Part shown: positions 263-38,130 of the stretch, one piece after another | Numbering within the stretch: the first letter of the stretch is position 1 | Layout: the number at the start of each line of letters is the position of its first letter | IMG/VR virus record: IMGVR_UViG_3300021979_000001 | Location: 162,948 to 226,947 of that record | Reading direction: 5' to 3' (one strand) | From: a virus | Taxonomy: Duplodnaviria; Heunggongvirae; Uroviricota; Caudoviricetes | DNA: 64,000 nucleotides | Program-made: the position numbers and the translations under genes | The notes under the pieces: generated by a model | Told to the model about the DNA's origin: nothing | The model's input: the letters and a program-made list of their open reading frames with translations, nothing else | The model's database searches: none

Positions 263-365
263 TTGATAAATAAAAATGAACGGTAATCATCGGGTGCCAC
301 CAACACCCAATGAGGCACCTCAAGGCGAAGTGTTGTCCCGTTCTAATGTATTTATCAAGGCGGGA
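263..365 (+). promoter_or_regulatory. late promoter ATAAATA (266-272) inside a three-way-junction leader abutting the tnpB RBS
   Basis: Perfect 10-bp inverted repeat ttgataaata(263-272)/tatttatcaa(349-358), inner stem gaacgg/ccgttc and two internal hairpins. RBS-like aaggcggga follows directly. Confidence 0.6.
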
Positions 366-368
366 ATA

Positions 369-1580
369 ATGACTTCCAATAAAGCATATAAATTACGGAT
401 ATATCCGACAAAACAACAAGCCGAATTGCTTAAGCAAATCGGTGGCAATTGCCGTTGGCTCTGGAATAAATTACTCGCTGATAACCAATCTCACTACACA
501 AAAACCAAAAAGTTCTTCTTTTACAAAGATATGTCTGCTTCACTACCAAGAATGAAGCAAGAAACCGAATGGCTCGGTGAGGCACCAGCCGTGTCCCTAC
601 AACGAGTTGCCAAGAACCTTGATACGGCTTTGAAGCAATGCTTCAAAGCCGGTAAAGGCTTCCCTCGCTTCAAAAAGAAATCAACCAATAAAGATTCATT
701 CTATATCACCAATCAGCAATTCGGTATCAAAGACAACAAGGTCAAAATACCGAAAGTGGGTTGGGTTAAATTCCGTGCTGGTTGCGTTCCTGTGGAACGC
801 ATCCTGTCAGCAACCGTATCTCAAGACGGCGACCACTGGTATTGCTCCGTCATGTGCGAGTATGAAACATCCGATTTGGTGGAACCAACCAATGCCATCG
901 GTATTGATTTGGGTTTGAACTATTTAATCACAACAAGTGATGGTGAGGTCGTTGATAACCCACGCCATTTACGTAAAGCAGAAAAGAAACTCACACGGAG
1001 ACAACGCCAGTTGTCTCGTGCCGAAAACAAAAGAAAGAAAAACGAAGGTAGAAAAAGAACTTCAAATAATTACCGCAAGAAACAACTGAAATTATATCGG
1101 TTGCACCGCAAGGTGCGAAACCAACGCAATGATTTCTTGCACAAACTAACAACGGAATTGATAGCCAATAATTCTGTTATTTGTCTGGAAGACCTCAACA
1201 TCAAAGGACTACACCGCACCCAATTAGCCAAATCCATATCGGATGTGGCATGGGGTGAATTGGTGCGTCAGTTGACCTACAAGGCTCACTGGTATGGTAA
1301 GCATATTGTCAAGATTGGACGATTTGACCCATCTTCACAAATTTGCTCTTGTTGTGGTCACAGACAAAAAATGTCTTTAGACAAAAGAACTTACGAATGC
1401 CCTTCTTGTGGGATGTCAATGGATCGGGATTTGAATGCCGCCATTAATATCAAAAATTGGGGAATAAACAAACTGGTAGGGCGAGGAACGCCCGAACCTT
1501 ATCAGGACGCTTTGCGTCCCGATAATACGCCTGTGGATGATACCTCTGACGGGGTTTATTCAGCACTTGCTGCTGAATAA
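369..1580 (+). CDS. tnpB: IS200/IS605-family RNA-guided endonuclease TnpB
   Basis: N-terminal AYKLRIYPT HTH; RuvC-I GIDLG; RuvC-II LEDL; Zn finger CSCCG..CPSCG; RuvC-III DRDLNAA. Start moved to ATG 369 (RBS upstream). Confidence 0.95.
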   Translation: MTSNKAYKLRIYPTKQQAELLKQIGGNCRWLWNKLLADNQSHYTKTKKFFFYKDMSASLPRMKQETEWLGEAPAVSLQRVAKNLDTALKQCFKAGKGFPRFKKKSTNKDSFYITNQQFGIKDNKVKIPKVGWVKFRAGCVPVERILSATVSQDGDHWYCSVMCEYETSDLVEPTNAIGIDLGLNYLITTSDGEVVDNPRHLRKAEKKLTRRQRQLSRAENKRKKNEGRKRTSNNYRKKQLKLYRLHRKVRNQRNDFLHKLTTELIANNSVICLEDLNIKGLHRTQLAKSISDVAWGELVRQLTYKAHWYGKHIVKIGRFDPSSQICSCCGHRQKMSLDKRTYECPSCGMSMDRDLNAAINIKNWGINKLVGRGTPEPYQDALRPDNTPVDDTSDGVYSALAAE

Positions 1581-35631: not shown

Positions 35632-35723
35632 TTTTGATTAACTCCATAAAAACAATTATTGACTTTTACCGAGAAATTGTGAAATTGTCAAATCTTAATT
35701 TAAAATTATGGTATTTACATAAT

Positions 35724-35900
35724 ATGTTCATATGTAACTGTAATGGCATCAACGAACGTAAAATTTCTGAAATGGTATCAAACGGTGCTAAAAAATATTC
35801 AGATGTATTCGCGATGACTGATACCAAACCATGTTGTGGTAAATGTAAACACGACATTAATGCGTGTATAAATAACACGGTTAATGACCACAAAAAATAA
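35724..35900 (+). CDS. bfd: bacterioferritin-associated ferredoxin-like [2Fe-2S] protein
   Basis: MFICNCNGI.E..I.....CCGKC. Confidence 0.85.
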   Translation: MFICNCNGINERKISEMVSNGAKKYSDVFAMTDTKPCCGKCKHDINACINNTVNDHKK

Positions 35901-35902
35901 TA

Positions 35903-35932
35903 TTGACTGATGATACGATCATCACCTATATT
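35903..35932 (+). promoter_or_regulatory. sigma70-like promoter with a palindromic spacer, upstream of the large ncRNA candidate
   Basis: TTGACT-18bp-TATATT; overlapping dyad tgatgat-acg-atcatca. Confidence 0.55.
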
Positions 35933-35940
35933 AGTTTTTT

Positions 35941-36570
35941 ACATATTGTCCAGGAAGTAATAGGGGCCACTTCCGCCCCAAAGCAAGTCCATCCGGGAGA
36001 TAACAGAGACCGGGGTTTGCATGGCAGGACAGCCCACAAGCCGGATGCATGATCCACATGGTTAAGCCGACCATGGCGAGGTTATGTAAACAGCCGCTTG
36101 CCACACAAAGGATGTGGACGAAGGCACCTTAAAAGAGGATAGTTATGTCTTGAGCATATTTGACATCTATCCACATATGCAACAGTCCACCAATCGCTTT
36201 GCATATGGGCTTGTGAAAACTAAATTTACCATTTTTACATAACCGTTGGACCTACGATACATTTGCCTGTGCAGCAAGGTTGTTTAACCCCGATGCACCG
36301 TTTGATTAGGATGAAATGTGAGGTCGAGATAGGGCTATACTTGTTGGTTACCGGGCAACCGCCAACTATCATCGTAAAGGTGATTAGTAGCTTATTGGTA
36401 GCGGGCTAAATGACTCAGGAAGTTATTTTTAATTCGCTTAATGTCTCTCCCTTGGACTAATTCACCACTATTGCATTCAATTGCTATTAGTGTTTGCGCA
36501 ACAACGATGTTGTGTCTATAATTTGAATTAGTCCAGGGGGGAGAAAGAGCATAACATCTGATCTAGGATG
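35941..36570 (+). ncRNA. large structured non-coding RNA candidate (~620 nt)
   Basis: ORF-free and GC-enriched, with more than 12 helices, G-U pairs on the + strand, a GNRA loop and crossing helices. Confidence 0.7.
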
Positions 36571-36798
36571 CATGTTCTATTTTTTAATAATCACTGTGTT
36601 CATTACGTATTTTTCTTATTGTCTTTTTATTCCTTAAAAATCAACAAGAATGAAATTTACAAGCATATGTGAACGTTAGTGAACAGATGCGCTGTATAAT
36701 TTCTTCTTGTTGCGATAGGGTCTTAATGATTTTTTTCCGCAAGGAAAACAAATCAGAGAGACCCTTCCAGTTAATGTCACTCACGGATAATTACCATA

Positions 36799-37125
36799 AT
36801 GACCAAATACACTTCATTACACGGGAATATGACGATACTTATCGACGAACAAATAATTACAGATGGAATCAATATATTAAATATGATCAATAATATTTCT
36901 GTGTTGTCTTCCTTGAAAGGAATACATGGCCCACATATGATCTATGAAAAAATCATCATTGATGAATTACATGTCGATATAGATGCCACAATGTATTGGC
37001 TAAAGAATTTTGGACTAATCACGCCAGTAATGCAGAAATCAGTTGCGATTACACCAAAAGGAATTAAATCACTTGACTTATCATCATTTCTATCTACAAA
37101 TCATTTAATTCCAGTTAGATCATAG
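36799..37125 (+). CDS. hypothetical protein (possible winged helix)
   Basis: L..FGLI...ITPKG pattern. Confidence 0.6.
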   Translation: MTKYTSLHGNMTILIDEQIITDGINILNMINNISVLSSLKGIHGPHMIYEKIIIDELHVDIDATMYWLKNFGLITPVMQKSVAITPKGIKSLDLSSFLSTNHLIPVRS

Positions 37126-37134
37126 GGACATGTC

Positions 37135-37563
37135 ATGAAAAAATACGAATTACTTAACAAAAAAGCACGGTTTGATTATTATCTTCACGATACCTTCGAA
37201 GCAGGGATTATGTTAACCGGGTTTGAAGTAAAAAATATTCGAACCCATAATGTTAGCATTACTGAAAGTCATATCCGTGTGGAAAACGGAGAAGCATGGT
37301 GGGTTAATTCCACTATTGGTCATTCAGTCGTTAATATGTTTGATAAACACGAACCAACTCGTGTTCGAAAATTATTATTGCATAAAAATGAAATTGCAAA
37401 ACTGTATGACGCCGTGAATAAAAAGGGAAATACCATTGTTCCCACCAAACTATATGAAAACAATGGCGTTTTTAAACTGGAAATTGCCATTGCCACTGGT
37501 AAGAAAACCGTGGACAAACGACAAACCATTAAAGAACGTGAATGGAAACGTTCGGGGCATTGA
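37135..37563 (+). CDS. smpB: SsrA-binding protein SmpB with shortened C-terminal tail
   Basis: NKKARFDY..FEAGI.L.G.EVK..HEP.R.RKLLLHK.EI..GKK..DKR.TIKERE. Confidence 0.96.
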   Translation: MKKYELLNKKARFDYYLHDTFEAGIMLTGFEVKNIRTHNVSITESHIRVENGEAWWVNSTIGHSVVNMFDKHEPTRVRKLLLHKNEIAKLYDAVNKKGNTIVPTKLYENNGVFKLEIAIATGKKTVDKRQTIKEREWKRSGH

Positions 37564-37650: not shown

Positions 37651-38130
37651 ATGGTTGTTTATATAATGAATGAAATACTTATTGCTGATTTAGAAACCAA
37701 TGGCATATCACCAAGTGAAATCTATATTGTTGGTGTTCTGAATTATACGACTGATGAATATACACAATATTATCAGTCACTTGATGAAATATCAGTAGGA
37801 TTAATGCGATTAAATGATGCCAGATTAATTATTGGTCATAATTTCATCAAATATGATTCGACTACAATACGTAAGTTAACCGAAGGGGTAATTGATATTC
37901 CTGAAACCAAGATAATCGACACTCTTACCATGTCGAGAAAATTATTCCCGGACATGAAGAAACATTCCCTTGGTGAATGGGGTGATATTTTTGATTATCC
38001 CAAGATCGATTATAAACTTGGTTTTGATCGGTTCCATCCTGAAATGTTACCATACTGTGAGCGGGATTGTCGTTTGAATAAAAGACTATATGATTTCCTA
38101 ATCAGCCAGGAAACCAATAAATTATCGTAA
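37651..38130 (+). CDS. stand-alone DEDDy 3'-5' exonuclease (Pol A/T7-like proofreading domain)
   Basis: DLETNG, GHN.IKYD, DTL, HSL..W, YCERD. Confidence 0.85.
   Translation: MVVYIMNEILIADLETNGISPSEIYIVGVLNYTTDEYTQYYQSLDEISVGLMRLNDARLIIGHNFIKYDSTTIRKLTEGVIDIPETKIIDTLTMSRKLFPDMKKHSLGEWGDIFDYPKIDYKLGFDRFHPEMLPYCERDCRLNKRLYDFLISQETNKLS

Follow-up and report, generated by a model that had tools for sequence, protein, structure and literature searches.

The window analysed here, a stretch of 64,000 nucleotides, covers bases 162,948-226,947 of a 457,165-bp IMG/VR jumbo-phage record, labelled G000 in this work. The major capsid protein of the phage shares 74% identity with its counterpart in Sinorhizobium phage Phosso and 64.5% with the one in Agrobacterium phage Atu_ph07, and the 457-kb genome contains 20 tRNA genes. 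A 434-aa transposase (phrog_506, E 4e-132) is encoded at window positions 276-1580, within the jumbo-phage genome. The longest stretch of the window without an ORF of at least 60 aa lies at 35901-36668 (768 nt) and holds a predicted RNA of about 650 nt (35939-36590, plus strand). The GC content of this RNA is 43.5%, reaching 48.5% in its 5′ half, compared with 39.1% in the window and 34-38% in the flanks. The RNA is preceded by a sigma-70-type promoter (35903-35932, plus strand) consisting of TTGACT (35903-08), an 18-nt spacer and TATATT (35927-32), in which 10 of 12 positions fit the consensus. The original prediction, made from the letters of this DNA, had pointed to the same promoter and to the longest ORF-free, GC-enriched stretch, and both descriptions are borne out. 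The 5′ end of the RNA was placed from the −10 box and the 3′ end from a hairpin followed by U6 (36580-85); the sequence beyond the RNA tail is AT-rich. The plus strand folds with a predicted energy of −216.6 kcal/mol (z = −5.5 against shuffled sequences), and the minus strand gives z = −3.1. Downstream of the RNA are located an ORF (36799-37125), the smpB gene (37135-37563, Pfam 2e-49) and a gene of a 159-aa DEDDy 3′-5′ exonuclease (37651-38130, plus strand; PF13482, PHROG ‘DNA polymerase exonuclease subunit’). The latter protein resembles the exonuclease domain of T7-type PolA and retains the catalytic D, E, D, Y and D residues.

The scan of the window against all 4227 families of Rfam 15 (cmscan) yielded two tRNAs as the only matches at the gathering score. 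Nothing meaningful was obtained across 35700-36800 at E ≤ 10, including GOLLD, ROOL, OLE, HEARO and raiA, which did not rise above noise, and four other members of the RNA family described below (B, C, D and E) matched no model at E ≤ 1. The cmscan comparison recommended earlier has thus left five members, A-E, without an Rfam family. Transfer-messenger RNAs possess a tRNA-like acceptor with a T-arm, a CCA end and a tag reading frame. None was detected in the window either by ARAGORN or by Rfam at E ≤ 10, and an ordinary permuted tmRNA with the tag ANDNVASNMAVAA was located by ARAGORN elsewhere in the phage, outside the window (G000:C1:160209-160554), so the tmRNA identity was rejected. This two-piece tmRNA lies about 2.4 kb before the window start and about 39 kb from smpB, and its tag style points to an alphaproteobacterial host. 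RNase P RNA is distinguished by the P4 pseudoknot with the GGAAAGUCC and ACAGAA..GGCUUA regions; it was rejected because of the lack of a match in A at E ≤ 10 and in B, C, D and E at E ≤ 1, and the RNase P-like AAGUCC..CCGG turned out to be a plain hairpin with a variable loop. Group I and II introns contain a catalytic core (P3-P8/P7 or domain V) and are inserted in a gene; they were dismissed on the grounds of the Rfam result and of the intergenic position of the RNA behind its own promoter. A template RNA of the retron or DRT type was rejected because the 457-kb phage contains no reverse transcriptase (PF00078), which was found in control genomes by the same search. The hammerhead-like CUGAUGAG of member D is not conserved and was set aside as well. 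These comparisons agree with the earlier remark that no T-arm/CCA of tmRNA, no RNase P sequence and no full group I core are visible, and the literature search found no previous description of the family.

Relatives of the RNA were recovered stepwise. A search of the phage's own genome revealed a second copy, B, located 217 kb away on the opposite strand, which aligns with the copy in the window, A, over the full length, promoter included, at 78% column identity. A covariance model of the 5′ domain (R1) added a third copy in this phage and two in a 607-kb relative, and a further copy, in a 415-kb record, came from a search with a three-block DNA pattern. With the covariance models of the central domain, R2 and R3, four copies were placed in this phage, near 126.3, 199.0, 305.7 and 415.9 kb, together with three copies in G001, two in G021 and one in G004 (a fragment), all three being related IMG/VR jumbo phages. 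Agrobacterium phage Atu_ph07 carries one divergent copy of about 430 nt on the minus strand of MF403008, at about 383.2-383.6 kb, in an annotated 2.2-kb gene-free gap. Most matches of the three-block pattern are due to chance and lie in coding DNA; after their removal with R2, about 11-12 metagenome contigs remained, several of them syntenic with locus A, as well as four matches in two bacterial chromosomes. At least 24 relatives were found with covariance models built in this analysis, and the collection of homologues proposed earlier has produced a multi-copy family that extends to bacteria. The region upstream was read in five further members, B, C, D, E and F, and each has the equivalent promoter element, TTGAC-N17/18-(T/G)ATAnT.

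The distribution of the family is patchy. Matches to R2 and R3 are absent from five complete close relatives and from Phosso, and no copies were found in a sample of 150 other alphaproteobacterial genomes. The blastn search against 50,697 phage records gave no homologue, with the same outcome for 20 related IMG/VR records; exact 20-mers and hairpin patterns found nothing in viral contigs, and synteny searches through SmpB or the exonuclease in viral contigs found no close relatives. Some of the Atu_ph07-like jumbo phages contain two to four diverged copies, and the family is rare in mobile and defence islands of alphaproteobacteria. Several weak matches to the central domain (15-20 bits, E about 2e-4 to 0.06 per genome), at 77146-77271 (+) and 365020-365180 (−) of MF403008.1 and at G009:C1:63601-63737 (−), may belong to further divergent members.

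The fold of the RNA was analysed by comparison of members; all positions below refer to the plus strand. The 5′ domain (35947-36032) is closed by P1 (35947-51/36028-32) and comprises S1 (35953-58/35969-74), S2 (35963-67/35975-79) and the P3 hairpin (35983-36020), with compensatory changes between A and B. The a-b-a′-b′ arrangement of S1 and S2 occurs in 16 of 24 members, compared with 9% of shuffled sequences, and its covarying variants include GGAAGU/ACUUCC, GAGAC/GUCUC and GGCGGU/ACCGCC. Since loop 3 measures just 0-1 nt, S1 and S2 may alternate as conformers rather than form a true pseudoknot. The long-range helix P4 (36035-42/36208-15), seen in the alignments, closes the multi-helix core P5-P9 and shows compensatory replacement of A-U by G-C and C-G pairs (ACAAG/CUUGU in A, CCGAG/CUCGG in C, CCGAG/UUUGG in E). 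P5 (36046-54/36080-88) is a variable hairpin that competes with the 11-bp helix of the original prediction; in the alignment of A and B all its pairs, 117-126 with 149-159, are preserved by one-sided changes.

The central domain (36086-36249), scored at 131-133 bits by R2 and R3, consists of P6, P7, P8 and P9, followed by the invariant single-stranded CAUAACCGUU (36238-47). Among 11 members, 93.5% of the cells in this domain are paired, compared with 67.2% for shuffled sequences and 29-45% when the partners are slid; this share is somewhat inflated, as the members were aligned by fitting to the model. Compensatory changes occur in 28 of 31 pairs, and the covariation score is 0.676 compared with 0.19 for shuffles and at most 0.15 for slid partners. 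Despite the fitting, the controls with slid partners and the variety of pair types uphold the case for covariation. RNAalifold applied to A and B gave 102 pairs, 21 of which are kept by two-sided changes. Further downstream, the variable domain P10 (36250-36325) precedes a three-way junction that starts from GAGAUAGGGC (36326-35); within this part (36250-36400; columns 332-468 of the alignment) the pairs are shared by A and B, with many compensatory changes. The junction carries a CGG-GNAA-CCG hairpin and a hairpin with a GUAAA loop, and its helices are visible in all sequences compared. Overall, the conserved core contains at least 13 helices backed by compensatory substitutions and the conserved single-stranded motifs CAUAACCGUU, AAAAAGGCAC and GAGAUAGGGC.

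The 3′ part of the RNA includes the P14 hairpin (36407-36430), defined by comparison of members, then P15 (36444-36544), a long hairpin with the basal pairing UCUCUCCC/GGGGGGAGA and a length of 20-50 bp depending on the member, and the tail (36560-36575). The region is purine-rich, with a conserved GGGGGRGAAAG and a run of five or six G at the base of P15. The C-run/G-run base of P15 is kept throughout, and its length varies: P15 of A has 21 bp with side branches, B forms a nearly continuous stem of about 50 bp (L002), and a long hairpin is also seen at about 1560-1620 of L130 (minus strand). In 18 of 18 members P15 folds more stably in the sense than in the antisense orientation, the mean difference being 11.4 kcal/mol, and there are 2-7 G-U pairs in the sense strand and 0-3 in the antisense strand. 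The whole RNA folds better in the sense orientation in 17 of 18 members. This preference, found in 17-18 of 18 members, indicates selection on RNA and not on a DNA palindrome.

Most of the structural claims of the original prediction are confirmed by these comparisons. Nearly all helices it listed are real and kept in relatives: tgtcc/ggaca, ggggc/gcccc, gcaagtcc/gggtttgc, ccaca/tgtgg, ggatag..atgtc/gacat..ctatcc, catatgcaa/ttgcatatg, gttgg..cgg-GCAA-ccg..ccaac, atcatc-GTAAA-ggtgat and the 21-bp stem, for which the G-U pairs had been taken to suggest selection on plus-strand RNA, in line with the strand preference of P15. The covariation it had called for is present, far above shuffles. The two helices it had described as crossing have fared differently: cacaagcc/ggcttgtg, which is P4, is upheld by compensatory changes, but the 11-bp ggttatgtaaa/tttacataacc (36080-90/36234-44) is perfect in A only and has two mismatches in B. 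The specific pseudoknot proposed from this crossing is unsupported, because the 11-bp helix is not conserved and the local P5 hairpin covaries. The general conclusion, a large structured plus-strand non-coding RNA of no recognised class, is met by the fold, the covariation and the Rfam results alike. Paralogue A is a member of a family of ornate, independently transcribed RNAs of about 430-650 nt that match no Rfam model, and it is almost certain that this is a genuine new structured-RNA family. To our knowledge, large RNAs with complex conserved folds are rare, examples including ribozymes, OLE and the ROOL and GOLLD RNA cages, and no match of the family to any of these was obtained. For each copy, about 0.6 kb of seemingly “empty” sequence can now be annotated in the genomes of these phages.

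The most peculiar feature of the RNA is a module of about 23 nt (AGUGAC..AAA..), which is duplicated on either side of P15. In the loop of P14 it reads (G/A)A-CUC-A followed by a tag, and in the tail it reads (G/A)A-UCU-(A/U) followed by an identical tag. In A, the loop contains AACUCA and the first tag copy (36417-23), and the tail contains GAUCUA and, as found by comparison of the tags, the second copy (36565-71). The tag, i.e. the last 5-11 nt of the module, is the same within a member and differs between members and paralogues, for example AGGUUGAUGA in D, AGGUACAG in E, AUCAGA in C, CGGAAAU in H, GCAAGACAC in m184 and AGGGUAUUGC in m153. The two copies agree on average at 6.8 of 8 positions within a member, compared with 3.8 of 8 between members; an exact permutation over seven independent members gave 2/5040. 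The identical stretch reaches 10-11 nt in D, m153, m236, m184 and m232.

The conserved part of the module, CUC as opposed to UCU, shows a fixed difference between the copies in nearly all members. A target-site duplication caused by the insertion of the hairpin was therefore rejected, as the conserved part differs in a fixed way and the variable part is identical. An old duplication with fixed differences and an identical variable end implies selection or conversion and not neutral decay, and the occurrence of an identical variable element at two sites points to sequence-specific recognition. No complement of the tag was found at a consistent place inside the RNA, and pairing of the tag with the P7 loop was rejected, as it is not member-specific (permutation p = 0.77). 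A 10-nt tag has one reverse-strand match in its 607-kb genome, approximately the number expected by chance. In paralogue C (L089, about 1130-1160, minus strand) a third tag of about 10 nt is situated in the 5′ strand of the long hairpin, which means that the tail of this paralogue could displace that strand.

The genes surrounding the RNA differ between paralogues. The association with SmpB that had been suggested does not extend beyond this locus: at syntenic positions in other phages the RNA occurs without smpB, and the ordinary tmRNA is encoded elsewhere. Synteny with locus A extends to G001, G021 and several contigs. The exonuclease gene adjoins the RNA in four to five loci; it lies directly downstream in D, F, L218 and L236, where it encodes 150-165 aa, and in the present phage the ORF 36799-37125 and smpB are inserted between the two. 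Of five RNA-positive phage genomes, four encode the exonuclease, and all five RNA-negative complete relatives lack it. Atu_ph07 and the two RNA-bearing bacterial genomes do not have it, and hence it cannot be an obligatory partner of the RNA. Stand-alone exonucleases of about 150 aa were observed at L092:6902-7345, L293:1501-1923 (minus strand) and L218:1365-1859, in T4-like jumbo phages. The inspection of GC skew, another of the earlier suggestions, showed that copies A, G and B occupy local minima of the cumulative skew, at places where gene orientation diverges, but the skew here follows the direction of transcription, so the minima constitute weak and not independent evidence.

It seems that these features are best combined by a scaffold RNA that would recognise nucleic acid through the twin tag, a reading to which we assign a probability of roughly 0.45. 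The conserved core would serve as the scaffold and the tag as the specificity element, and both copies of the tag would be kept identical since both must pair with the same complementary strand. That the identity of the tags reflects base pairing with a common partner has, judging by the sequences, about an even chance of being right. The target could be located in trans, in which case the RNA would be guide-like or regulatory and might act with the DEDDy exonuclease in this sub-clade; this variant is tentative and on balance improbable. The other option is a target in cis, namely the template DNA strand at the tail, which would be recognised by the upstream loop.

A broader version of the scaffold reading supposes a programmable RNA, whose scaffold of about 500 nt would show a paralogue-specific sequence twice for pairing with nucleic acid; we regard it as rather unlikely. 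Such pairing would either guide a partner enzyme, namely the co-occurring exonuclease of the phages or the recombinases of the bacteria, or anchor an R-loop. If this is true, each jumbo-phage genome contains several ‘addresses’, and the system is of a new RNA-guided or RNA-anchored kind. The IS110 bridge RNA, the omega RNA of IscB/TnpB and HEARO likewise combine a conserved scaffold with short variable segments resembling specificity elements, and the RNA described here also stands next to recombinase genes in two bacteria and next to the gene of an RNase-H-fold nuclease in phages. In contrast to these guide RNAs, the neighbours are a classical resolvase, a classical integrase and the 159-aa DEDDy exonuclease and not IS110, IscB or TnpB, and the Rfam model of HEARO is not matched. 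Bridge RNAs of IS110 adjoin a DEDD/Tnp recombinase and present different guides in two internal loops; the two tags here are identical direct copies, and with the non-IS110 neighbours this led to the rejection of an IS110-type bridge RNA. The genetics of the family is unusual, with diverged paralogues within a phage, a patchy occurrence among close relatives and jumps into bacterial defence and mobile islands. Since the cultured phage Atu_ph07 (Agrobacterium tumefaciens C58) carries a member, tests of expression, structure and knock-out are feasible now.

The scaffold reading has to be weighed first against the possibility that the RNA is the pre-primer of a replication origin, like ColE1 RNA II or the R-loop transcripts of T4 oriF/oriG. 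According to this explanation, host RNA polymerase would make a folded RNA, the loop tag of which pairs with the template strand at the identical tail; this pairing and the purine-rich G5-6 run would hold in place a persistent RNA-DNA hybrid, to be trimmed and then extended. Origins of the ColE1 or R-loop type are characterised by precisely such a persistent hybrid at the origin and by priming from the processed 3′ end. The equality of loop and tail tags would be explained directly, and the purine-rich 3′ region with its conserved GGGGGRGAAAG, the AT-rich sequence past the tail, the position of A, G and B at skew minima and the polymerase-type proofreading exonuclease as a conserved neighbour all fit. 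The likeness to ColE1 RNA II and T4 oriF/oriG extends to the size of about 550-650 nt, the own promoter read by host RNA polymerase, the G-rich element near the 3′ end and the upstream loop that could pair with downstream template DNA. T4 has several replication origins, and two to four copies per 0.4-0.6-Mb genome would be comparable; bacterial copies next to resolvase and integrase genes recall plasmid-type maintenance modules. However, the absence of any copy from the five complete close relatives and Phosso would be odd for an essential origin, the skew minima lose weight for the reason given above, copy A ends with a terminator-like hairpin and U6, and the genes around copies B and C are unrelated to replication. 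The core is also far more elaborate than that of the primer RNAs with which it is compared, none of which, as far as we know, has such an ornate covarying core, and homology with them is not expected. Taken together, this explanation is unlikely.

Self-assembly of the RNA into a multimer or cage, in the manner of ROOL, GOLLD or OLE, is a doubtful explanation. ROOL and GOLLD (RF03087, RF01998) are similar to the family in size (0.5-0.8 kb), ornateness supported by covariation and encoding by phages or prophages, and they share with it the lack of a known protein partner or function; the conserved loops might form intermolecular bridges, and there is a precedent in the RNA-only nanocages formed by the phage- and prophage-encoded ROOL and GOLLD (bioRxiv 10.1101/2024.12.08.627333). 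Nevertheless, neither sequence nor structure matches ROOL, GOLLD or OLE, the helices and motifs being different, and complementary loop pairs were not found in the RNA. It is positioned away from tRNA islands, and it is distinguished from ROOL and GOLLD by the presence of several diverged paralogues in one genome and by the variable tag duplicated around the 3′ hairpin, which assembly would leave unexplained.

The bacterial copies raise the question of a mobile-element RNA, either a guide or cofactor of site-specific recombination, the twin tag of which would match the core of two DNA partners in an IS110-like manner, or a remnant of a ribozyme or retroelement. In Caenispirillum salinarum ADH2-936, the RNA and most of a serine-resolvase gene are contained in a 1,858-bp inverted duplication with 100% identity, the copies of which (L246:3013-4870 and L271:4953-6810; NZ_CP085224, about 678 kb and 699 kb) are separated by 21 kb, with an IS3 element and a SIR2-like gene adjacent to them. 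A 2.6-kb insertion interrupts one of the resolvase copies. The chromosome of Azospirillum sp. TSH64 has a repeat of at least 1.6 kb, which carries the RNA and the gene of a 201-aa tyrosine recombinase and adjoins BREX genes. These duplications, the patchy occurrence among phages and the multi-copy nature of the family would suit a mobile element. The two recombinases belong to unrelated families, though, and none is adjacent to the RNA in phages; the phage paralogues are old (about 75% identity) and hold syntenic positions across phages, the phage has no reverse transcriptase, and the nearby IS3 could explain the bacterial duplication, all of which makes a mobile-element RNA quite improbable.

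A cis-acting leader, antiterminator or regulator of the downstream operon can be given very little credit: most copies do stand at the start of a group of co-oriented genes, but the downstream genes are unrelated between copies, copy A ends in its terminator-like hairpin at least 210 nt before the next ORF, and at about 650 nt the RNA is far larger than the leaders known to us. The least probable explanation, and one that hardly survives, is a DNA-level element (a palindrome, origin or recombination site) or a very divergent representative of a known class (tmRNA, RNase P, group I/II or GOLLD), for which one could cite the long inverted repeat between direct repeats and the ability of extreme divergence to escape Rfam models, and against which stand the G-U pairs and folding energies favouring the sense strand in 18 of 18 members, the compensatory changes throughout the molecule, the Rfam result at E ≤ 10 and the tmRNA located elsewhere.

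The commonest tags, CAGGAAG and CAGGAUG, resemble the CsrA-binding repeat, CAGGA(U/A/C)G. Sponge RNAs of the CsrB/RsmZ type combine multiple GGA motifs with the presence of CsrA in the same system, and the GGA-like tag with one copy in a hairpin loop is reminiscent of them. Many tags have no GGA, however (AGGUUGAUGA, AUCAGA, GCAAGACAC), and no CsrA gene was found in the four phage genomes searched (G000, G001, G021 and Atu_ph07), so a CsrB-like sponge was rejected.

Past the tail, many members possess one or two hairpins with differing stems and with loops containing GAGCGAAGCGAG or a repeated AGCGA, which were read at L086:2100-2180, L088:2080-2160, L134 (minus strand) and L236. In the window, their counterpart is a GUGAAC..GUGAAC repeat directly before a TATAAT box at about 36660-36700. 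These hairpins could represent a second conserved element or a protein-binding site.
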